A stretch of DNA of 64,000 nt, from positions 406,014-470,013 of IMG/VR virus record IMGVR_UViG_3300028558_000016; one strand, given 5' to 3'. Position numbers and translations under genes: made by a program. The DNA is from a virus. Positions within the stretch are counted from its first letter, which is position 1, and the number at the start of each line of letters is the position of its first letter. Below, piece by piece: positions 2,196-35,143 of this stretch. Below the pieces are notes generated by a model. It did not search any database and had not been told where the DNA came from. It saw only the letters and a list, made by a program, of their open reading frames with translations.

Positions 2196-2196
2196 T

Positions 2197-3180
2197 ATGA
2201 TTTTAGAAATTGCAATAGGAGATGCGTACGGACGTCCATTTGAATTCAACACACCAGAATTCATAGCCAAACACAATGATGTTCTTGGTTATAAGCATCG
2301 TATTGGTGAAGAAGAAAATGGAATAGGAATTTATACAGATGACACTCAAATGTCTATTGGCGTTGCAGAACAAATGGGTTCAGACCTTCCTGGTACTCAA
2401 GTAAGATTTGCTGCACACTTTGTCACCTCTTATAAGAGAGACCCAAGAAAAGGATATAGCAAAAGAATAACGAAAGCTCTCGAGGAATCAAAACCAAATC
2501 TTCCATTTGAATTTATATTGAAAGCTAAACAGGCAGGAATGTCGAGCAACGGAAGCGTAATGCGTTCTGTTCCTCTTGGCATGATGTCTGATCCAAAGGA
2601 AATAATGCACAGGAGCATTGTTCAAACATCAACATCACATGGACACATTGATGCCGTTAATTCTGCGGTTGTTGTTGCATTGACCGCACATTTCTTTTAT
2701 CACTTATATCCTCGATTGGAAGATTACATTCAATCGGATAAATTGATAATGTATAAGGAATGGATGAATGGACAAGTTGGTTCAGCTGTGTTTAACGATG
2801 TATATGACTCTTACATCTTTAAAAGGAAAAACGATAAGTTGCAATGTGATTCAAAAACAACTGCTTCATTGTCTATCAAATTAGCATGGGGAGTTAAGAT
2901 TAGTGGTGGAAATTTAAAGACATCCGCTAAACAAATATTAAAGAGAGCTGTTGATATTGGAGGAGACGTTGATTCGTCAGCATCGATTGCAATGGGATTG
3001 TACAGCTTAAGGACTGATGCAATAATGGATCTCCCTGATGTGTTATATGAAAATCTCGAGAATGGACCTTTTGGTAGAGACTTCTTGGTTGACATGGATG
3101 TTCAAATGCAAAAGAAATTTCCAAGAAATGTAAGGGAAGAGAAAGCTGAGTCTGAAAAATTAACCGACATAATAATATAA
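2197..3180 (+). CDS. ADP-ribosylglycohydrolase family protein (ARH/DraG-like)
   Basis: N-terminal IAIGDAYGRPFEF matches the GDAxGxPxEF hallmark of the ADP-ribosylglycohydrolase family; 327 aa fits; start overlaps the ATPase stop (ATGTAATATG). Confidence 0.7.
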   Translation: MILEIAIGDAYGRPFEFNTPEFIAKHNDVLGYKHRIGEEENGIGIYTDDTQMSIGVAEQMGSDLPGTQVRFAAHFVTSYKRDPRKGYSKRITKALEESKPNLPFEFILKAKQAGMSSNGSVMRSVPLGMMSDPKEIMHRSIVQTSTSHGHIDAVNSAVVVALTAHFFYHLYPRLEDYIQSDKLIMYKEWMNGQVGSAVFNDVYDSYIFKRKNDKLQCDSKTTASLSIKLAWGVKISGGNLKTSAKQILKRAVDIGGDVDSSASIAMGLYSLRTDAIMDLPDVLYENLENGPFGRDFLVDMDVQMQKKFPRNVREEKAESEKLTDIII

Positions 3181-3183
3181 CAC

Positions 3184-3399
3184 ATGGGAAAAGAAAAAAT
3201 AATATACGTTGGTCAATTAAAAAAGAAAGACGTATCAGTAGAAGATGGAGGTCAGGCAATGGTATCAGATCCTTTCAGCACTAACGGCGATAATGGAATG
3301 TTTGTGAGAATCCAATCTTGGGACGAAAATAAAAAGCATGAGGATTTTAAAAAATTCCAAGGAAGAAAAATAAAAGTTACTATTGAAACTGTGGACTAA
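3184..3399 (+). CDS. hypothetical protein (71 aa)
   Basis: Small ORF between coupled genes. Confidence 0.4.
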   Translation: MGKEKIIYVGQLKKKDVSVEDGGQAMVSDPFSTNGDNGMFVRIQSWDENKKHEDFKKFQGRKIKVTIETVD

Positions 3400-4067
3400 T
3401 GAAATATAAATTACGTGAAATAAAAGATGGAATATTCCTTGCCGAGTTCGATAATCATTACGACTTGGCAATGACCTTTTTAAGGTATCAGGAATTTTAT
3501 GAATCTGCTAATCCCAAATTCAAGGGAAGAAGATTCATCATACTTGATTACATGGAATGGTACAGCAAAAATCATAAAGGATTATTCACATATCCTGCGG
3601 ATTGGGCAGGGTTTAATATTCCAATGAGCGTGGTATTTGAAGTTCAATCCTCTTATCCTGGAATGGGACCTATAAAAGACTTCAACAAGTATGATGAGTT
3701 GATGAAGCAGATCGTTCTCAAGATAGAAAAGAAGAAGGAAAGAAAAAGCAACGGTTACCGTTCTATGGGAAAGAAATACATCATAGGAGCTTTGGAAGGA
3801 AAAAAATCAGTTATGAAGCACGAAATAGCTCATGGCTTGTATCATGTGTATCCTTATTATAAGATTGACATGGATAAGCTTTATTCAAAACTATCCAAGG
3901 AGAGCAAGAAGAAATTGGAAGTTGAATTTGAGTCAATGGGTTATCATAAATCAGTTTGGAAGGACGAAGCTCAGGCATATCTTTCAACTGGAGATTATTT
4001 GACACCTGAAGAAAGAAAACCGTTTCAGGATTTATTAAAGAAGTTTTTAAAGGATGTCAAGCTCTGA
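3399..4067 (+). CDS. putative HExxH zinc metallopeptidase (SprT-like?)
   Basis: MKHEIAHGLYH contains HExxH followed by a second His 4 residues later; 222 aa. Confidence 0.4.
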   Translation: MKYKLREIKDGIFLAEFDNHYDLAMTFLRYQEFYESANPKFKGRRFIILDYMEWYSKNHKGLFTYPADWAGFNIPMSVVFEVQSSYPGMGPIKDFNKYDELMKQIVLKIEKKKERKSNGYRSMGKKYIIGALEGKKSVMKHEIAHGLYHVYPYYKIDMDKLYSKLSKESKKKLEVEFESMGYHKSVWKDEAQAYLSTGDYLTPEERKPFQDLLKKFLKDVKL

Positions 4068-4743
4068 AAAATATAATTTTTTTCCATTTAATATACGTGA
4101 CAAGAAGTATAAGAAAGTCACTTATAAAAATAGGTGCGTTCTTGTTCCGCTTGAAGGAAATAAAGATTATCTCAGACATTTATGTGGTTATGCAGTGTTT
4201 AAGAAAACTGACATTCCAAAAGATTGGTGGGGAAATTATAACGCACCTGGATTGCAAGAATTAAATGTGCATGGTGGAATAACATATTGCAGACAATTTA
4301 AAGTTCCAAACCAAGCTAAGATAGAAAAGAAATTTCATGATCAAATTGATGCGTTATATGACATCTCAAACAGAGAAACTTATGACCATGAAAAAGTTTC
4401 TAAAAGGATGAAAGAAGTGAAGAGGCTGGAAAAAGAATGCAACGATGAATTGTCAAAGAGCGATGAAGGATATATTGTGTTTGGTTTTGACTGTGGACAT
4501 TATAGGGATGCAGAGAATCCAAATCTAAAAGATCCTAACCATGTAATGATATTGACCGAGCAGATGGATACGCTGCTCAAAAAATTTAAGGAAAGTTACG
4601 AGGATTATAGAGATGCGGATGGAGTGACAAAACATGTAGTTAGAAAATCCATCATGGCAAACGTAAACAGAGAAGCAGAAATTCAATGTGAGTTAGGTTT
4701 TGGCGGACTTATTAATTTGCTTTCAGGAGAAACAGAAGATTAA
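4054..4743 (+). CDS. hypothetical protein (229 aa)
   Basis: ORF with no recognisable motif. Confidence 0.45.
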   Translation: MSSSEKYNFFPFNIRDKKYKKVTYKNRCVLVPLEGNKDYLRHLCGYAVFKKTDIPKDWWGNYNAPGLQELNVHGGITYCRQFKVPNQAKIEKKFHDQIDALYDISNRETYDHEKVSKRMKEVKRLEKECNDELSKSDEGYIVFGFDCGHYRDAENPNLKDPNHVMILTEQMDTLLKKFKESYEDYRDADGVTKHVVRKSIMANVNREAEIQCELGFGGLINLLSGETED

Positions 4744-7579: not shown

Positions 7580-7893
7580 ATAAACATTGAAACAATTTTA
7601 AAAAGAAAAGGTATATAGTTTAGAAGATTGCTTACAGCAAAACAAAATGGTTAAAGAATCACCGAAAGGTGGTTTTTTCGGTTCGATCCCGAAGCTCTGA
7701 GATTACATCAATGAGTTTTAAGGCAATCTGAAAGACATTAGAATAACAATACAATGAAGAACAGGAATCACATACACAAGCATCAGATATGGCATAGAGA
7801 TATGTCGGGCTTGGGTGTTACCTGTACTTTGAAGTAAGTATTGGTTATTTACGAAAGTAAAACCTCAAGGCCTAAAACCTTGAGGTTTTTTTT
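7580..7893 (+). ncRNA. candidate about 300-nt non-coding RNA with a 6-codon mini-ORF (unclassified)
   Basis: Lies between a promoter and a strong terminator with no protein ORF; 7-bp hairpin ACCGAAA-GGTGGTTT-TTTCGGT; mini-ORF ATGAGTTTTAAGGCAATCTGA at 7711–7731; AAGGTATATAG block shared with the 11.1-kb module. Confidence 0.4.
7858..7893 (+). terminator. rho-independent terminator
   Basis: AAACCTCAAGG-CCTAAAA-CCTTGAGGTTT followed by TTTTTTT. Confidence 0.75.
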
Positions 7894-7901
7894 ATTTACA
7901 T

Positions 7902-7984
7902 ACGTCGGTGTCCGAGCGGTCAAAGGTAGCGGTCTCCAAAACCGCGGAGTTTCTCCATCGTGGGTTCGAATCCTACCCGGCGTG
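7902..7984 (+). tRNA. tRNA-?(CCA): class II (long variable arm) tRNA with anticodon CCA, decoding UGG; G73 discriminator; Ser/Tyr-like body
   Basis: Acceptor ACGTCGG/CCGGCGT (one G·U); D region TCCGAGCGGTCAAAGG typical of Ser/Tyr/Leu; anticodon arm GCGGT-CTCCAAA-ACCGC; variable-arm hairpin GGAG-TTT-CTCC; T arm GTGGG-TTCGAAT-CCTAC. Confidence 0.6.
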
Positions 7985-8005
7985 CAAAAATTAAAAGAAG
8001 AAAAC

Positions 8006-8360: not shown

Positions 8361-8450
8361 GGTGCAGGTATCCAAGGGGTTGAAGGGACCAGGCTGTGGA
8401 CCTGGTTGAAGCGAAAGCTGAACACGCGAGTTCGAATCTCGTCTTGCACC
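8361..8450 (+). tRNA. tRNA-His(GTG): tRNA-His-like (anticodon GTG) with G-1 and C73 but an unusually long variable region (about 89 nt)
   Basis: G-1 plus acceptor GTGCAGG/CTTGCAC and C73; anticodon arm CCAGG-CTGTGGA-CCTGG; extra hairpin AGC-GAAA-GCT before T arm GCGAG-TTCGAAT-CTCGT. Confidence 0.5.
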
Positions 8451-8456
8451 CACATG

Positions 8457-8530
8457 TGGATTGTAGCTCAATGGTAGAGCGCTGGTTTGTGGAACCAGAT
8501 ATGCGGGTTCGATCCCCGTCTTTCCAACCA
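8457..8530 (+). tRNA. tRNA-His(GTG): tRNA-His (anticodon GTG), class I, encoded CCA; acceptor stem with two U·U mismatches
   Basis: D arm GCTC-AATGGTA-GAGC; anticodon arm CTGGT-TTGTGGA-ACCAG; T arm GCGGG-TTCGATC-CCCGT; 3' ACCA; acceptor TGGATTG/CTTTCCA. Confidence 0.6.
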
Positions 8531-8539
8531 AAAGAAGCA

Positions 8540-9172
8540 ATGATGAAAGAGTTAAAGTTAGATAGCACGTACAAAGGAACGAGAATTCTTGTAGGAAACG
8601 AGAAGCGTGGAATGATCAATGACATGGTCATGATTTTATTGAATCAAGGCTTCACTGAGATTTCCATTCCGATCATTCAGTTGCAAGAAACATTTGCAGG
8701 AAAGGTTGGAGAAGAAAATAACAATCTAATGTTCAATTTTAAAGATCGTGGAGAAAGGAATGTTTGCTTGGCTCCTGAATACACAGCAGTGATTCAACAA
8801 TTGGCAAAGACGAAATACAAACAAGAAAAGGACGTAAAGCTTTTCTATGTGCAAGAATGTTTTAGAGGAGAAAAGCCTCAAGCAGGAAGATACAGACAGT
8901 TTACTCAATTTGGAGTTGAAATTTTAAATCCAAAGAAAGAAACTATGGAAGGATTAAAAGAATTAGCCGTCAGCCTTTTGTCCGGTTATGATTTCAAATT
9001 CAACGTCAACAGTGATGTGACGAGAGGTTTGGATTATTACAAGGACGGAAAAGGATTTGAGATCACATGCGATGAGCTTGGATCAAGCAAACAGATTTGT
9101 GGTGGAGGTTCTTATGAAGGTGGAATGGGTTTTGCAATTGGAATTGATAGGATATTAAAAACACAGTCATGA
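8540..9172 (+). CDS. compact histidyl-tRNA synthetase-like protein (class II catalytic core, about 210 aa; no anticodon-binding domain)
   Basis: Motif 2 CFRGEKPQAGRYRQFTQFGVEIL (compare HisRS FRhERPQkGRYRQFhQ); motif 3 CGGGSYEGGMGFAIGIDRIL; N-terminal GTRILVGNE...EISIPIIQLQETF matches HisRS motif 1; about half the length of canonical HisRS. Confidence 0.75.
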   Translation: MMKELKLDSTYKGTRILVGNEKRGMINDMVMILLNQGFTEISIPIIQLQETFAGKVGEENNNLMFNFKDRGERNVCLAPEYTAVIQQLAKTKYKQEKDVKLFYVQECFRGEKPQAGRYRQFTQFGVEILNPKKETMEGLKELAVSLLSGYDFKFNVNSDVTRGLDYYKDGKGFEITCDELGSSKQICGGGSYEGGMGFAIGIDRILKTQS

Positions 9173-9900
9173 AATATTTAGTAGGAATACAGCCAACAGG
9201 AAAGATCCATATTGGAAACTATATGGGTTGCTTAGCAAAGGGGTTGAGATACCAGGAGCAGGGACACGAAGTAACGTTTCTCATTGCCAACTATCACAGC
9301 ATGACGACAGACTCATACTCTGATGTGACTGAGAAGGAATTGAGAATGCTTGGATGCAAGAACATTGTGCACCAGACTCCGGCTTACACTGAATTGTTCT
9401 TCAAGCTTTGTTGCAAGATGAACCTTGGAGTTTTGCAGAAGATGCCTCAGTACAAGGATAAAAAGGAAAGTGTTGATTTCGATATGGGGATTCTTTTATA
9501 TCCAGTTCTAATGGCAGCAGACATCATCATGAATGATCCTGATGTTGTGTTGGTTGGAAGAGACCAGGTTCCACACATGGAATTGACGAACGATATTGCA
9601 AAAAGAGTTGGAGTAACAAAGAGGTTTGAATACGAGCTTGGGGATGTTGAAAAGGTGATGTCGTTAATTGATCCAACAATGAAGATGTCAAAGTCATCTG
9701 GCGAAGCTCACGTGCTTTACCTATTTGACGAGGATTACAGTAACAAATTGAAAAGAGCAAACATGAACGGAGAAGGACTCATTAATATACAAAAGATAGG
9801 AGACTTCTTTGGAATAGAAAGAAACGATATGAATTCCATATACAAAGAAAATATAGCAATAAAACTGTCATCGGTGTTCGGCACCGTCCCGGTGACTTAA
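9169..9900 (+). CDS. compact tryptophanyl-tRNA synthetase-like protein (class Ic; 243 aa; C-terminal anticodon-binding region truncated)
   Basis: GIQPTGKIHIGNYMG matches the TrpRS N-terminus (SGxQPSGelTIGNYxG); YPVLMAADI; VGRDQVPHMELTNDIAKR; KMSKS at residues 172–176; ATGA overlap with the HisRS-like stop. Confidence 0.75.
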   Translation: MKYLVGIQPTGKIHIGNYMGCLAKGLRYQEQGHEVTFLIANYHSMTTDSYSDVTEKELRMLGCKNIVHQTPAYTELFFKLCCKMNLGVLQKMPQYKDKKESVDFDMGILLYPVLMAADIIMNDPDVVLVGRDQVPHMELTNDIAKRVGVTKRFEYELGDVEKVMSLIDPTMKMSKSSGEAHVLYLFDEDYSNKLKRANMNGEGLINIQKIGDFFGIERNDMNSIYKENIAIKLSSVFGTVPVT

Positions 9901-9922: not shown

Positions 9923-10007
9923 GGGCGTGTACCGGTGGAATCTTATACATTCTATACCCGTAGTCTGGTCGTTGAAAACGGGGGTTCAAATCCCTCCACG
10001 CCTACCA
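9923..10007 (+). tRNA. atypical tRNA-like gene (no recognisable D arm; anticodon-like hairpin with TAT; encoded CCA)
   Basis: Acceptor GGGCGTG/CACGCCT; T arm GGGGG-TTCAAAT-CCCTC; 3' ACCA; the only 5+7+5 hairpin is GGAAT-CTTATAC-ATTCT; a 26-nt extra segment precedes the T arm; 85 nt in total. Confidence 0.4.
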
Positions 10008-11382: not shown

Positions 11383-11466
11383 CGGCACGTACTCAGACCA
11401 TCCTGATAAGATGGATAACTTGTAGCGGTGTTGCAAACGTGGGTTCAAATCCCTCCGTGCCGACCA
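11383..11466 (+). tRNA. atypical tRNA-like gene (anticodon-like hairpin GAT; no recognisable D arm; long extra segment; encoded CCA)
   Basis: Acceptor CGGCACG/CGTGCCG perfect; hairpin CCATC-CTGATAA-GATGG (canonical Ile-GAU loop); only 6 nt between position 9 and the hairpin; 24-nt extra segment; T arm GTGGG-TTCAAAT-CCCTC; ACCA end. Confidence 0.4.
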
Positions 11467-11814: not shown

Positions 11815-11960
11815 ATGTCCTTAGCTCAGTGGTTAGAGTATTATGCTGATAAAAGGTTTTAGATCTTGTAATGGAAAAATATCACGGCTCATAACCGTGG
11901 TACCAAAACAAAAATTTAAAATGCACATAAGGGTCGGTGGTTCGAATCCATCAGGACATG
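11815..11960 (+). tRNA. tRNA (Ile-GAT-like) interrupted by an about 72-nt insertion in the anticodon loop
   Basis: Acceptor ATGTCCT/AGGACAT perfect; D arm GCTC-AGTGGTTA-GAGT; anticodon-stem halves TTATG ... CATAA separated by 72 nt that begin CTGATAA and contain the hairpin CACGG-CTCATAA-CCGTG; T arm GGTGG-TTCGAAT-CCATC. Confidence 0.5.
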
Positions 11961-12223: not shown

Positions 12224-12313
12224 GCCCGTGTAGCCGAGGAAGTTTTCTAAACTTTTATCCGTAATTGGAGCTGCGTCTCACGACTAATGGGGGTTCGAAT
12301 CCCTCCACGGGTA
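12224..12313 (+). tRNA. atypical tRNA-like gene (anticodon-like hairpin TCT; no recognisable D arm; 33-nt extra segment; 90 nt)
   Basis: Acceptor GCCCGTG/CACGGGT; hairpin GAAGT-TTTCTAA-ACTTT; T arm GGGGG-TTCGAAT-CCCTC; same architecture as the elements at 9923 and 11383. Confidence 0.4.
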
Positions 12314-12328
12314 CTTAAAATTAAAGTT

Positions 12329-13492
12329 ATGAAAATTGATATTGATAAAATAAAACAGATCCCCAAAGAGATTTCGGAAGAATTTGGGATGTGCGTCTAT
12401 GGACCAATCTCAGATGAGATTAAGGCATGGATGGAATTCCATGGTATGCAATCGCAAAACATGGGAAATTATACAAACATCTATACAGATAAAAACATTA
12501 TTGATCTGTTCAATAAACCAGAACCATTTGAATACATCGATGGGTTCAGTCCAAACCTAAACAAGAATCTTCACATTGGACACTTCTCAAATTTAGTTCT
12601 TGCAAAGGCTTTCGTCTCTCTTGGAATAGCAAAGAAGACTGTGGCAATATTGGGAGACACGTTAGAAGGGGATGTTTCAAAGGAAGATGCGTTGAACAAC
12701 TACAATGAGATATGTGAGAAATTCTCATACCCCGTAGATAAGATGTTCATGGCTTCTGAAATGGAATCTGATTACAACCTCGTGGATGGTGTTCATGAAT
12801 ATGAAGGAACCAAAGTGTTCTATCTTGATACGCCATTAGTTGGAATCAAAAGCGATGGGTCAACAACATATTTCTATCAGGACGTTGCATTGGCACAAAA
12901 ATTAAATGCTCCAACATTATATCTTACAGGAAGCGAACAGAACGGACATTTCAACAGCTTAAAGGAAATGTTTCCTAAAATAAAGCACATTGGACTTGGA
13001 CTTGTAAAAGCAAAAGGAGGAAAGATGTCAAGCAGACTCGGAAATGTTATTTGGATGCAAGATGTCATCGATGAAATGATGAGCAACTTTCAAGACGAAA
13101 AAGTGTGCTATAATGTTTTTGCAGGATTTATTTTGAAATCAACTCCTAAGTCTGAAAAGAACATAGACATATATCAATTGGACAATCCATTGAATTCACC
13201 TGGATTGTACTTAAGCTATACGTTAGCAAAACTAAAAAGCGCTGGAGTGAAATGTGAAGGAAAAACATTCACCTCTCAAGATCTTCAATTCAAATACATG
13301 AAGGCCTTGAACTCTCTTTCTCCAAATATTTTGCTTGAAGGTTTAATTGATCATGCAAAGAAGATAAGCGGTTTATACATCACTCACAAGATAAAAGATA
13401 ATGCGGTGAACCAGTCCATGTTTGAAATATTGGGTTCAGATTTATTATTAGGAATGAGCCTCCTGGGTTTATTTGATGTTGACAAGGTTTAA
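12329..13492 (+). CDS. compact arginyl-tRNA synthetase-like protein (class I; 388 aa versus about 570 aa canonical)
   Basis: HIGH motif SPNLNKNLHIGHFSN; ArgRS-specific KMSSRLGN in place of KMSKS (compare ArgRS kkMSTRkG) followed by ...QDVIDE; starts 16 nt after the last tRNA-like gene. Confidence 0.7.
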   Translation: MKIDIDKIKQIPKEISEEFGMCVYGPISDEIKAWMEFHGMQSQNMGNYTNIYTDKNIIDLFNKPEPFEYIDGFSPNLNKNLHIGHFSNLVLAKAFVSLGIAKKTVAILGDTLEGDVSKEDALNNYNEICEKFSYPVDKMFMASEMESDYNLVDGVHEYEGTKVFYLDTPLVGIKSDGSTTYFYQDVALAQKLNAPTLYLTGSEQNGHFNSLKEMFPKIKHIGLGLVKAKGGKMSSRLGNVIWMQDVIDEMMSNFQDEKVCYNVFAGFILKSTPKSEKNIDIYQLDNPLNSPGLYLSYTLAKLKSAGVKCEGKTFTSQDLQFKYMKALNSLSPNILLEGLIDHAKKISGLYITHKIKDNAVNQSMFEILGSDLLLGMSLLGLFDVDKV

Positions 13493-17562: not shown

Positions 17563-18255
17563 ATGTCAGCATTTAATTTAGCAGTTCCACCACATCCACT
17601 ATCCTCGTTATTACTAAGAGCAATTAACTGGGCACAGCCTGATGATCCTGAAAAGAAATATCCTATTCTTGGAAGAATGAGATATGTTTGGATCGATGAA
17701 GAGAAAAATATTAAGATTCTGGTTAGAGATGCTCCTGACTCATGGTCAGAGGAAAAGGACGAAGTGATGAAACAAATCAAAGGTCATGAAACTTTTGTGA
17801 GTGTTGAAGTTTCTGAAAAAGATTCTACACATCTAATTGCCACATTCAAGCCTGTAATGGAAACTTCTTATGACAGAAGCATTCCAATGGATGAATTCCT
17901 CGATAACATCCACATATTTGATGAGGGTGCTCAATCTAAAGGTTGGCCGTCTCTTCTTGTTGGACCATGGGAATTATTTGATATTGCTATGGAGAAAATG
18001 AAAAATGGAGAGATGAGTCCCAAGATGGAGAGATTTGGTGAGCAATTAAAAGAAATGCTAAATGAGTCGGAAGCGGAAGACAAGCTTGAAGAGATGACAA
18101 AGGAAGCTGGTATTGATGGATTTGAAACTAAGAAAATAAAAGTGATGACAGTCGACAGAGTAGGAAATTTGAGTGATGAGACTGAAAGATTCATGAAAGA
18201 AAATGACAATGGAAAAACTCCTGGACAAGATACAAGCCAAGATACTCGTTCTTAA
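17563..18255 (+). CDS. hypothetical protein (230 aa)
   Basis: ORF. Confidence 0.45.
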   Translation: MSAFNLAVPPHPLSSLLLRAINWAQPDDPEKKYPILGRMRYVWIDEEKNIKILVRDAPDSWSEEKDEVMKQIKGHETFVSVEVSEKDSTHLIATFKPVMETSYDRSIPMDEFLDNIHIFDEGAQSKGWPSLLVGPWELFDIAMEKMKNGEMSPKMERFGEQLKEMLNESEAEDKLEEMTKEAGIDGFETKKIKVMTVDRVGNLSDETERFMKENDNGKTPGQDTSQDTRS

Positions 18256-19048: not shown

Positions 19049-19636
19049 ATGATAACAATTGGTATAGCTGGTGGAATGGGTTCTGGTAAGAGCCACATAA
19101 GCAAAGCATTTGCAAAGAATGGAATTCCTGTTTATGACTGTGATAGCCAAACTAAGGATTTGTTAAACAGGAATGAAAGATTAAAATCCAACATGATTTC
19201 CGCGTTTGGAGAAGGATGTTATGTTAACGGAAAATACAGCAGAGATTACATAGTCGAATTGGCATCTAAAAATCCTAATGTGGTAGATGATACTGGAAAA
19301 ATAATAGGTCCGTATCTTATTGAAGACTTCAAAACATTTAAAGAAATTAATGAGTCTTTCCATACTCCATTCATTGCTATAGAATCTGCGATACTTACTA
19401 AATCAAAAAAGCTTATGAATGAAATCAATAAGCTTCTTGTGGTGACTGCCCCATTTGAAATAAGAATGGATAGAATTAAAAAGAGAGATCCATTTAGAAC
19501 TGACGATGAAATCAAATTGTTATTAAGCAAACAGCCTGAGATCAAATTGTGTGAAATAGATTTTCTTATAGATAATGATGGAACTAAAAATGTGGATGAT
19601 GCCGTTGTGACAATTATTAATGGACTTATTCCTTAA
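19049..19636 (+). CDS. dephospho-CoA kinase (CoaE)-like P-loop kinase
   Basis: N-terminal ITIGIAGGMGSGKSHISKAF...IPVYDCD matches the CoaE signature (IGLTGGIGSGKS...VIDAD); 195 aa. Confidence 0.6.
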   Translation: MITIGIAGGMGSGKSHISKAFAKNGIPVYDCDSQTKDLLNRNERLKSNMISAFGEGCYVNGKYSRDYIVELASKNPNVVDDTGKIIGPYLIEDFKTFKEINESFHTPFIAIESAILTKSKKLMNEINKLLVVTAPFEIRMDRIKKRDPFRTDDEIKLLLSKQPEIKLCEIDFLIDNDGTKNVDDAVVTIINGLIP

Positions 19637-20165
19637 CTATCTGAATGCACTTAGGATTGAAAACGATATAGCTATAAATGTCATCTCCTTTTAAAACTGT
19701 TGCTCCATCATATTTTATGTGAACCATGTTCTTGGCAAATAAATCAGGTTTCCCTTCGTAAAATTCATCAGCTAAAATCTTATAACAGTTGTGAGCACTT
19801 CCACCATTCATGATGTGATCAATGGCTTTGAAATATGCTTCCCTTGCATTGTGATCAAACTTCTTTAATGTCTCATCCTTGTCTGGCGCATAAGACAACA
19901 TGTAAACGACGTCATCTCTTTTTGGAGGTCCTTGGTCAGAAACCATTCTTCCTAATTTAAGTTGTGCTTTGGTAACATAGGCTCCATGTTTTCTTGCATC
20001 ATTTTCCTTGGACAAAAATAATATTCCAGACACCTCATCTTTGTGTTCAAACATGTTATCAAACGTGAATCCTTTTTTCACTTCAATTCCACCATGATAG
20101 CCCACGATCATTTCAGGTCCTACCTTGTCAGGAAATCTTTCTTTGAAACGTTGAATGTATCCCAT
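19626..20165 (-). CDS. hypothetical protein (179 aa); inverted relative to the surrounding + genes
   Basis: ORF on the opposite strand, converging on the CoaE-like gene. Confidence 0.45.
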   Translation of the reverse strand: MGYIQRFKERFPDKVGPEMIVGYHGGIEVKKGFTFDNMFEHKDEVSGILFLSKENDARKHGAYVTKAQLKLGRMVSDQGPPKRDDVVYMLSYAPDKDETLKKFDHNAREAYFKAIDHIMNGGSAHNCYKILADEFYEGKPDLFAKNMVHIKYDGATVLKGDDIYSYIVFNPKCIQIVKE

Positions 20166-20661: not shown

Positions 20662-20922
20662 ATGAGTGCAACCAAAGCGTACTATGAACAGTTCTTCCAG
20701 GAAGAACATCATGATTTTGTAGATGAATCCTCTTATGAAGATTTTCTTCGTATGGAAAGAGAACATCAACAACAAGAATTAAATCTTCTTGAAATGAGCG
20801 TCGAAGAACATGATGAAGAAATCATCGTTCAAAGAAGTCCAAAAACCCAAATAAATTGGGAAGAAAAAGCCAATGAGTTTTTGGCAGGAAGCAAAACTCC
20901 AATTCGTGACTTACCATTTTAA
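20662..20922 (+). CDS. acidic hypothetical protein (86 aa)
   Basis: ORF. Confidence 0.4.
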   Translation: MSATKAYYEQFFQEEHHDFVDESSYEDFLRMEREHQQQELNLLEMSVEEHDEEIIVQRSPKTQINWEEKANEFLAGSKTPIRDLPF

Positions 20923-20932
20923 AATTTAAAAC

Positions 20933-21397
20933 ATGAAATCATTATTGACATTAAAAGATACGGATGTTATGCAAGGATATAACACCATCATGGAAAGAAT
21001 CGAAAACGGTTTTTATGACCAATACATAGGAACCAAAACTTTCGGAAGAAAAAGCCATTATAAAAAACTAATCGATAGAACTGGAATTTCTCTTACTCAA
21101 ATGGATTCGCTCCTTTCTGTAAAAGATTACACTACTATTCAATTTCATTTTGAACAAAATTATAAACCAAAAGCTGTTAGCTTGGCTCAAGATGAATTGA
21201 AAGGAAAAAATGCAGAAATTCTAATGCAAAATAACATTGAAAATTCTGAATTGGCCGATAAAGAAGAAAGAGAAAGAATCAATGGAATTCTTTCATCTAT
21301 TCCAAGCGAAGATCTTAATGGATATGGTTATTCAGAAGGAGCAGAGATTGCAATAGCTCATATTCTGAAGAACTATAATTTAACTTTTAAAAATTAA
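20933..21397 (+). CDS. hypothetical protein (154 aa)
   Basis: ORF. Confidence 0.45.
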   Translation: MKSLLTLKDTDVMQGYNTIMERIENGFYDQYIGTKTFGRKSHYKKLIDRTGISLTQMDSLLSVKDYTTIQFHFEQNYKPKAVSLAQDELKGKNAEILMQNNIENSELADKEERERINGILSSIPSEDLNGYGYSEGAEIAIAHILKNYNLTFKN

Positions 21398-34879: not shown

Positions 34880-35143
34880 TTATCTGCTTCTTCCGTTTTT
34901 TAAATCATTCCAAAACTGCATAGTTTTGTATGCCACTATAGAAGCGACAGTTGGAGCTAATCCATATCCAAGAATATCCATAACAAAATCAACTCCTGTG
35001 TCCGACTTAAAATGTCCTATCACAGAACCTATTGTTATTAGTTCATAAATCGTTATTCCGAATGCTACCAAAAATATTTGGATGAATGTGTTCTGCCACA
35101 TTATCTTGAAGAAATTCTTAAAGCTGTTGTCAAATTGTTCCAT
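34880..35143 (-). CDS. small membrane protein (87 aa)
   Basis: Two hydrophobic helices. Confidence 0.4.
   Translation of the reverse strand: MEQFDNSFKNFFKIMWQNTFIQIFLVAFGITIYELITIGSVIGHFKSDTGVDFVMDILGYGLAPTVASIVAYKTMQFWNDLKNGRSR

Follow-up and report, generated by a model that had tools for sequence, protein, structure and literature searches.

In the textbook account, a long variable arm is confined to tRNA-Leu, tRNA-Ser, bacterial tRNA-Tyr and tRNA-Sec. Tyrosyl- and tryptophanyl-tRNA synthetases (TyrRS and TrpRS) are paralogous class Ic enzymes, and the substrate of TyrRS in bacteria is naturally long-armed. Class II tRNAs whose anticodon is mismatched to the amino acid that they accept have been reported as allo-tRNAs (Mukai et al. 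2017, PMC5389517) and as the nev-tRNAs of nematodes (PMC3333845), and the allo-tRNAs described in Acidobacteria include missense suppressors (PMC5389517). Among phages, the code-change pair of AP1, TrpRS and tRNA-Trp(UCA), has proved active in experiments, where it was orthogonal to E. coli (Seki et al. 2025, PMC12636597). The main text of a paper on huge phages (Al-Shayeb et al. 2020, PMC7162821) proposes that phage aminoacyl-tRNA synthetases charge the phage's own tRNA variants; long-armed Trp, His, Lys or Glu tRNAs are not described in that text, nor is compactness of the enzymes. Here, we analyzed 64,000 nucleotides of viral DNA (IMG/VR record IMGVR_UViG_3300028558_000016, positions 406,014 to 470,013; "the window" below means the whole of this stretch), which carry at 7902..7984, on the plus strand, a tRNA gene with a long variable arm and the Trp anticodon CCA. 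By its identity elements it is a tRNA-Trp, and by its architecture it is a class II tRNA. Judging from its sequence, we consider it probable that the gene encodes a functional tRNA-Trp with a class II, Tyr-type scaffold, which would be charged by a TrpRS and would read UGG as Trp.

ARAGORN called a tRNA-Trp(cca) at 7902-7985 of the window, and Rfam family RF00005 matched 7902-7984 (44.8 bits, with the gathering score set at 29; E value = 5e-9 locally and 2.7e-6 over the whole window), its alignment opening an insert of about 10 nt within the variable region. The minimum free energy fold from RNAfold contained the same acceptor, anticodon, variable and T helices and kept CCA at positions 34-36 within the loop CUCCAAA; no alternative fold placing a different triplet at these positions was found. 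The class II body, G73 and CCA anticodon in a CTCCAAA loop that had been read in the original prediction were thus borne out. The tRNA measures 83 nt up to the discriminator, G73 (7984), and its CCA end is not encoded. The 5' strand of the acceptor stem, ACGUCGG (7902..7908), pairs with CCGGCGU (7977-7983), and direct reading gives the pairs A1-U72, C2-G71 and G3-C70 and a U4.G69 wobble, followed by U8 and G9. The D arm (7911..7927) has the Tyr/Ser-type architecture of class II with a three-position stem, UCC/GGU; the region reads UCC-GAGCGGUCAAA-GGU, or in full UCC-G-AGCGGUCAA-A-GGU, where AGCGGUCAA is the D loop, C11 pairs with G24 and G13 faces A22. The 3-bp stem, G13/A22 and enlarged loop are those of a class II D arm, though 10:25 is a U.U. 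The anticodon arm, GCGGU-CUCCAAA-ACCGC (7929..7945), has CCA at 7936-7938 and is closed by U31-A39. The variable arm, GGAG-UUU-CUCC-AUC (7946..7959), has a 4-bp stem, a UUU loop and a 3-nt 3' spacer, AUC, in Tyr-type geometry; at 14 nt with a stem-loop, the variable region is of class II (at least 10 nt with a stem-loop). The T arm, GUGGG-UUCGAAU-CCUAC, lies at 7960..7976, giving a 7/5 acceptor/T configuration, and U8, A14, G18G19 and the conserved T loop are all present. Upstream, a 12-bp hairpin followed by a T run, resembling an intrinsic terminator (7859..7889, plus strand), ends 12 nt before the tRNA and separates it from the upstream gene.

Next, we looked at relatives of the gene. The nearest DNA relatives of the window are uncultured huge phages of 634-735 kb (LR745206 and LR756501-4), a group that the main text of the huge-phage paper assigns to the Mahaphage clade, with Bacteroidetes as predicted hosts (Al-Shayeb et al. 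2020, PMC7162821). In L169, a contig 95% related to the window, the tRNA-Trp gene stands at the same position, the gene order is kept, and the TrpRS-like protein discussed below is 95% identical; the only stem change in its tRNA-Trp turns U4.G69 into C4-G69, two further changes fall in the D loop, and the U.U at 10:25 is kept. L170, which is 84% related, has an 84-nt tRNA-Trp with a different variable stem (CUC-GAAA-GAG) and A73.

To collect a wider family, we used the pattern GGTCTCCAAAACC-N(14-30)-GGTTCGAATCC, which excludes any tRNA-Trp whose variable loop has 5 nt and which fixes the Trp-type anticodon arm and the T loop of whatever it collects. At least 120 viral contigs in IMG/VR matched, and ARAGORN called on those listed, to which all counts from viral loci below refer, at least 117 tRNA-Trp of 81-92 nt, at least 82 of them distinct. 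Contigs longer than 100 kb made up 45 of the 120 matches listed. The family, carried in phage tRNA clusters, is known chiefly from metagenomes. Only 5 of the 122 tRNA-Trp called in these loci were of normal length, so the long form is usually the sole tRNA-Trp in the fetched DNA. The variable region ranged from 11 to 22 nt across the family and varied freely in sequence and length. At least three body types could be told apart: type A, that of the window, with a class II D arm; type B, with a longer D stem; and type C, with a typical class I tRNA-Trp body and a hairpin inserted in the variable loop. These body types indicate that the variable arm was gained more than once.

We then aligned 19 type A sequences to a class II cloverleaf and assessed covariation against shuffles and slid controls. 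Standard pairs occupied 98.9% of cells, and 17 of the 23 pairs showed changes on both sides, with such pairs in all five helices. All seven acceptor pairs covaried, and so did the three D-stem pairs; the sole unpaired D-stem cell was the U.U of the window, position 10:25 being paired in 18 of the 19. All three variable-stem pairs showed compensatory double changes, and the stems included CUC/GAG, UCC/GGA, AGC/GCU, AGG/CCU and GGC/GCC, with GNRA loops frequently at their tips. The observed values were above those of all 500 shuffles, and the slid controls gave 35-44% pairing.

These data bear on the idea that the window element does not decode, being a decaying duplicate, a tRNA-Tyr-like gene that has been remolded, or an RNA of tRNA shape that acts outside translation as a decoy or regulator. 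Its U10.U25 mismatch, an Rfam score below those of the class I tRNAs in the window, and the presence there of four aberrant tRNA-like elements that ARAGORN did not call would fit such a fate. However, neither the four canonical helices nor the variable arm is disrupted, and the conserved nucleotides listed above are present; the gene is kept in L169 and L170 with structure-preserving changes; the family covaries strongly; and phage tRNA clusters would usually be left without any other tRNA-Trp in the fetched DNA around them. We therefore regard a nondecoding element as having only a slim chance. The window gene is a structurally sound tRNA gene that is kept in relatives, carries Trp identity nucleotides and belongs to a covarying family.

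The same pattern with a relaxed T loop matched 44 places in cellular genomes (one genome per species, 185,579 species). About 26 of the 44 lay within dense tRNA arrays, which included phage contigs deposited as bacterial assemblies or metagenome-assembled genomes (MAGs), about 10 arrays of Gemmata/Planctomycetes and three Collinsella loci; three of the 44 matches (L122, L130 and L141) were artefacts, with masked N runs inside ordinary tRNA-Trp. The planctomycete arrays (Gemmata, Singulisphaera and Frigoriglobus; L124, L127-L129, L131, L138-L140, L151 and L160), among whose contigs is the isolate Gemmata algarum JC673, hold 8-20 tRNA genes each, and every one includes a tRNA-Trp of 82-84 nt and several unusually short, 69-nt tRNAs. 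A BLAST search with the 84-nt tRNA against 50,697 GenBank phage records returned only weak tRNA-Ser and unannotated matches. Eight representative class II tRNA-Trp returned one metagenomic gut phage and a 73-nt tRNA-Trp of a Rhodococcus phage, and at BLAST sensitivity no cultured phage carrying a long-armed tRNA-Trp was found in these records. In the full-text literature, in which few subscription journals were covered, we found no description of a long-armed tRNA-Trp, including in texts that review noncanonical tRNAs (PMC7609411) and tRNA identity (PMC9976931), in that on novel cloverleaves (PMC5389517) and in that on huge phages (PMC7162821). When the scaffold was searched for with the anticodon UCA, as in a possible UGA suppressor, all eight viral matches were Sec/Ser-like tRNAs of 93-95 nt, and the class II Trp scaffold is thus not obviously used for recoding. 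The UCA tRNAs of these eight contigs (L180-L187) have very long variable arms, are called SeC by ARAGORN, and may be UGA suppressors or true phage tRNA-Sec.

We then asked which synthetase the window tRNA is suited to. In bacterial tRNA-Ser, G1-C72 and G2-C71 are nearly always present, and identity hinges on how large the arm is and how it is oriented; among antideterminants, C2-G71 acts against E. coli SerRS and G73 against both TyrRS and LeuRS, and discriminator G73 belongs to the identity of bacterial tRNA-Trp (PMC9976931 for all of these). The window tRNA has the Trp identity set, namely, anticodon C34 C35 A36, G73 and A1-U72. Moreover, its combination of A1-U72, C2-G71, G3-C70 and G73 is identical in 72- to 74-nt class I tRNA-Trp of sister huge phages, L110 and L175. 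For comparison, we took 49 tRNA-Ser, 27 tRNA-Tyr and 81 long tRNA-Trp from the pattern-collected viral loci. The tRNA-Ser had G-C at 1:72 (45) and 2:71 (46), A-U at 3:70 (43) and G at 73 (40), and the tRNA-Tyr had G-C at 1:72 (23), 2:71 (22) and 3:70 (18) and A at 73 (25). In the long tRNA-Trp, 1:72 was A-U (39) or G.U (30) in 69 of the 81, 2:71 was variable with C-G commonest (30), 3:70 was most commonly G-C (40), and 73 was G in at least 72; most of the remainder in the 1:72 and 73 counts are ARAGORN start offsets.

The geometry of the arm was compared as well. Stems of tRNA-Ser had 4-7 bp (5-7 in 39 of the 49) with spacers of mostly 1 nt on both sides; those of tRNA-Leu had mostly 4-5 bp, mostly no 5' spacer and mostly 1 nt on the 3' side; and those of tRNA-Tyr had 2-4 bp, mostly no 5' spacer and often 3-5 nt on the 3' side. 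Long tRNA-Trp had mostly 3-4 bp, a 5' spacer of 0-1 nt and a 3' spacer of mostly 3-4 nt, or 1, and the window tRNA falls among them with 4 bp, 0 and 3 nt. Arm geometry and acceptor end together indicate that the body is Tyr-like and not Ser-like, with an acceptor end and an anticodon that are Trp-like. Of the Ser/Tyr-like body first proposed, the Tyr half therefore stands, and the Ser half does not, given the 4-bp arm and its 0- and 3-nt spacers. Charging with Tyr or Leu was rejected in view of the G73 antideterminant and the lack of A73 and of a GUA anticodon: the window tRNA has G73, A1-U72 and CCA rather than the A73, G1-C72 and GUA (U35) of tRNA-Tyr.

The original prediction had also raised the possibility that host SerRS, which is blind to the anticodon, charges the tRNA and so places Ser at UGG, making it a missense suppressor. 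Such a tRNA would be allo-tRNA-like. SerRS relies mainly on the arm, and the window tRNA has a long one, together with G73 and C11-G24; in addition, Ser-like tRNAs with CCA exist in cellular genomes (L148 and L165), as do the allo-tRNAs of Acidobacteria (PMC5389517). However, the G73 is shared with tRNA-Trp and does not discriminate, and neither the G1-C72/G2-C71 of tRNA-Ser nor a Ser-type arm is present: A1-U72 and C2-G71 stand where phage tRNA-Ser have G-C in 45 and 46 of 49, respectively, 3:70 lacks the A3-U70 of 43 of 49, the C2-G71 pair is itself an antideterminant against E. coli SerRS (PMC9976931), and the arm, whose 4-bp stem is flanked by spacers of 0 and 3 nt, is of Tyr type where Ser arms are mostly of 5-7 bp with spacers of 1 and 1. 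Furthermore, the tRNA is 7/5, rather than 8/4 or 9/3 as in allo-tRNAs (PMC5389517), and its acceptor end is that of an ordinary phage tRNA-Trp. These features contradict the proposal, and we judge Ser insertion by this tRNA to be very improbable. Some matches in cellular genomes are of another kind. CCA anticodons were found on a full Ser-like body in Acidobacteria MAGs (L148 and L165; acceptor GGAGAGA, 98 nt, with G73 in L165 and U73 in L148) and on Leu-like bodies with A73 (L143, L153, L154 and L162); unlike the window tRNA, these are, from their sequences, real candidates for placing Ser or Leu at UGG in the manner of allo-tRNAs.

Some observations weigh against cognate Trp decoding or weaken the case for it. 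The C2-G71 of the window tRNA departs from the G2-C71 preferred by B. subtilis TrpRS (PMC9976931). The U.U mismatch at 10:25 leaves only two Watson-Crick pairs in the D stem. The SerRS identity rules that we applied come from E. coli and other models, not from the probable Bacteroidetes host. Lastly, the invariance of the anticodon-arm core in the family is uninformative, since the search pattern itself demands an arm of Trp type and the argument would be circular.

A tRNA-Trp on a class II scaffold nevertheless remains the reading that we favor, and it would work as follows. The gene would have its own transcription start past the terminator, its transcript would be processed by RNase P and by trimming of the 3' end, and the CCA end would be added. 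Host TrpRS, the phage's compact TrpRS, or both would charge it with Trp via CCA, G73 and A1-U72, and it would read UGG. The variable arm would be an add-on tolerated by TrpRS, EF-Tu and the ribosome; such tolerance is plausible because the tRNA-binding mode of class Ic synthetases, as known from TyrRS, accommodates the variable arm of bacterial tRNA-Tyr. The tRNA had been called a nonstandard decoding component, which holds for its architecture; its decoding is most likely standard, with UGG read as Trp. What the arm is for is speculative: it may set the phage tRNA apart from host tRNA, allowing escape from tRNA-targeting nucleases or selective handling by phage enzymes.

The compact TrpRS-like enzyme that had been noted 1.2 kb downstream of the tRNA was confirmed. 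The gene (9169..9900, plus strand, 243 aa) matches Pfam PF00579 (E value = 1e-36) and encodes a HIGH-like motif (HIGN) and KMSKS. Bacterial TrpRS are about 330 aa long. The sequence match in the PDB extends over no more than residues 6-232 of the B. stearothermophilus enzyme (328 aa), and the AlphaFold (AF2) model (predicted local distance difference test score, 86) had TrpRS as its best fold matches, with template modeling (TM) scores of 0.80 by query and 0.61 by target. The partial match and the TM values indicate that the compact TrpRS is the shorter by about 85 residues and that its C-terminal helical domain is reduced. Among the 120 homologue clusters closest to it, lengths were 215-304 aa, mostly about 240 aa, and the many clusters of about 240 aa occur on contigs of up to 438 kb. 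Some phage tRNA-Trp beside compact TrpRS have A73 instead of G73 (L170 at 3917-4000, class II; L023; and L167 at 20913-20985), a difference that hints at relaxed or different reading of the discriminator by phage TrpRS; the TrpRS:tRNA pairs of phages AP1 and HF2 likewise differ, G73 versus A73.

Because TrpRS also uses G73 and CCA as identity elements, the original prediction had suggested that the tRNA may be the dedicated substrate of this enzyme. As a private pair, the arm would be a recognition handle or self mark for the compact TrpRS with its reduced anticodon-binding domain, the tRNA would be charged mostly or exclusively by that enzyme and would be a poor substrate for host TrpRS, and the V-armed tRNA-His and mini-HisRS nearby would behave alike. 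The layout is suggestive: the tRNA and, downstream of it, the compact TrpRS belong to one series of cassettes (His-His-HisRS-TrpRS, then three Arg and ArgRS) whose order is kept in L169, and in L110 a gap of 14 nt separates the compact TrpRS gene from a class II tRNA-Trp, itself closely preceded by a class I tRNA-Trp. Copies of both classes stand side by side for one isotype (Trp in L110 and in L038, where the pair adjoins a mini-HisRS; His in the window, L169 and L175), an arrangement suggestive of divided labor; the enzyme is shorter than bacterial TrpRS by the margin given above; and an orthogonal phage TrpRS:tRNA-Trp pair exists (PMC12636597). The co-occurrence of compact TrpRS and V-armed tRNA-Trp is, however, not the consistent one expected of a dedicated pair. 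Homologues of the compact TrpRS have near them only class II tRNA-Trp in the window, L169 and L170/171, both classes in L110, only class I in L167, L168 and L175, and none within the flank in L001, L166, L172-174 and L176-179. Conversely, no compact TrpRS was present in 117 of the 119 other class II tRNA-Trp loci listed (fetched DNA, up to about 14 kb per locus), many of which lie on contigs of 16-60 kb, and a search for compact TrpRS, HisRS or ArgRS near these tRNAs found only L110 (TrpRS) and L038 (HisRS). Class I and class II tRNA-Trp of one genome share the acceptor identity nucleotides U72, G73 and C2-G71, and, as noted above, the arm varies freely. The inconsistent pairing indicates that the variable arm is not an obligatory handle of the compact TrpRS. 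Charging with Trp through G73 and CCA is plausible, and by analogy the compact TrpRS may well charge the window tRNA-Trp, but exclusive pairing of the two is unlikely.

The window tRNA-Trp stands at the head of a series of cassettes that combine cognate tRNAs with mini-synthetases, in the order class II tRNA-Trp, a 114-aa open reading frame (ORF), class II tRNA-His, class I tRNA-His, HisRS-like gene and TrpRS-like gene; the class II tRNA-His, the three synthetase-like genes and the four tRNA-like elements described below are on the plus strand. The class II-type tRNA-His(GUG), called by ARAGORN and Rfam (8361..8450), has 90 nt, G-1 and C73; the class I tRNA-His (8457-8530) follows it directly and precedes the HisRS-like gene (8540-9172, 210 aa). 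Further along, three tRNA-Arg precede an ArgRS-like gene (12287-13492, 401 aa). The HisRS-like, TrpRS-like and ArgRS-like genes each closely follow tRNAs of their own isotype and could encode synthetases that are near-minimal by nature. The variable stem of the class II-type tRNA-His changes in a compensatory way from AGC/GCU in the window to GGC/GCC in L169, and long tRNA-His also occur near the mini-HisRS in L175 and L038. In L170/L171, an IS605 OrfB/Cas12f-like TnpB gene (2196-3512, minus strand) sits between the tRNA cluster and the mini-HisRS/TrpRS pair. An alternative genetic code was considered and rejected: the window reads well under table 11, with TGA used as a stop (it ends 14 of 59 long ORFs), and there was no sign of recoding. 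Four tRNA-like elements missed by ARAGORN exceed the Rfam threshold with 33.8-48.7 bits (9923-10007, 11383-11466, 11815-11960 and 12224-12313). Three of these have a common T arm, GGGGGUUC(A/G)AAUCCCUCC, with A73 and aberrant D or anticodon regions, and two of the three encode a CCA end. One of the four directly follows the compact TrpRS gene, one overlaps the start of the ArgRS-like ORF, and in the 146-nt element about 70 nt are inserted ahead of a CAU anticodon arm.

Long arms were not limited to Trp. In the same viral loci, long-armed tRNAs had C73 in 5 of 6 His, U73 in 5 of 5 Cys, G73 in 6 of 6 Asn and A73 in 6 of 9 Lys. As they mostly keep the expected discriminator, cognate charging would be the general rule for V-armed phage tRNAs. 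In sister huge phages, long arms occur on tRNA-Lys (UUU and CUU; 82-90 nt) and on tRNA-Glu (86 nt), and copies of normal length often lie next to these (L166 at 19411-19680 and 34911-34996; L168 at 17862-18127; L170 at 4146-4235). Long Cys, Asn, Met, Ile(UAU), Phe and Pro tRNAs were also present in the listed viral loci (at least 120), and no long Ala, Asp or Gly tRNAs were seen in them. The recurrent gain of an arm by multiple isotypes might, speculatively, reflect selection for a phage tRNA shape unlike the host's. A bolder extension, which we put forward tentatively and hold to be doubtful, is that huge phages and many smaller ones mark their own tRNAs with an arm across Trp, His, Lys, Glu, Cys and Asn, and that the huge phages pair them with minimized synthetases that have reduced anticodon-binding domains (TrpRS, 243 aa; HisRS, 210 aa; ArgRS, 401 aa). 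The result would be a partly private aminoacylation circuit able to survive attack on host tRNAs or synthetases by defenses or by the phage.

Long-armed phage tRNA-Trp are apparently a widespread and overlooked structural class, though a less exotic one than a missense suppressor: an arm on a tRNA with Trp identity elements recurs in at least 82 distinct phage tRNA-Trp and is paralleled by long His, Cys, Lys and Asn tRNAs. The reading of the window tRNA as inserting Ser at Trp codons is corrected, being attractive but probably wrong. Should the charging of these tRNAs be cognate, a class II scaffold would be tolerated by TrpRS and several other synthetases, and phages would repeatedly evolve it, either by remolding a class II body or by placing a hairpin into a class I tRNA. 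Such repeated evolution would point to selection on tRNA shape and not on decoding. The arm would then be a candidate countermeasure to tRNA-targeting defenses, and the tRNAs a source of scaffolds for orthogonal translation systems.

The window tRNA can be set against known systems. Like the canonical bacterial tRNA-Trp of E. coli and B. subtilis, it has the loop CUCCAAA, the arm core GGUCUCCAAAACC, U31-A39, G73, A1-U72 and a 7/5 configuration; in contrast, the canonical tRNA has a 5-nt variable loop and G2-C71, where the window tRNA has a 14-nt arm, a class II D arm (loop GAGCGGUCAAA) and C2-G71. It resembles bacterial tRNA-Tyr in the architecture of the D arm, the short variable stem and the 3-nt 3' spacer and differs from it in having G73, A1-U72 and CCA instead of A73, G1-C72 and GUA. 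As in the AP1 pair, a phage TrpRS is co-located with a phage tRNA-Trp bearing G73, but the AP1 tRNA has the anticodon UCA, reads UGA and has no reported long arm, whereas that of the window has CCA. Finally, the window tRNA shares with allo-tRNAs and nev-tRNAs, some of which are found in phages or tRNA clusters, a long arm and an anticodon outside Leu, Ser and Tyr. Those tRNAs, however, mistranslate, with stems of 8/4 or 9/3 and the identity elements of Ser (or Leu); the window tRNA has 7/5 stems and Trp identity elements, from which cognate decoding would be expected.

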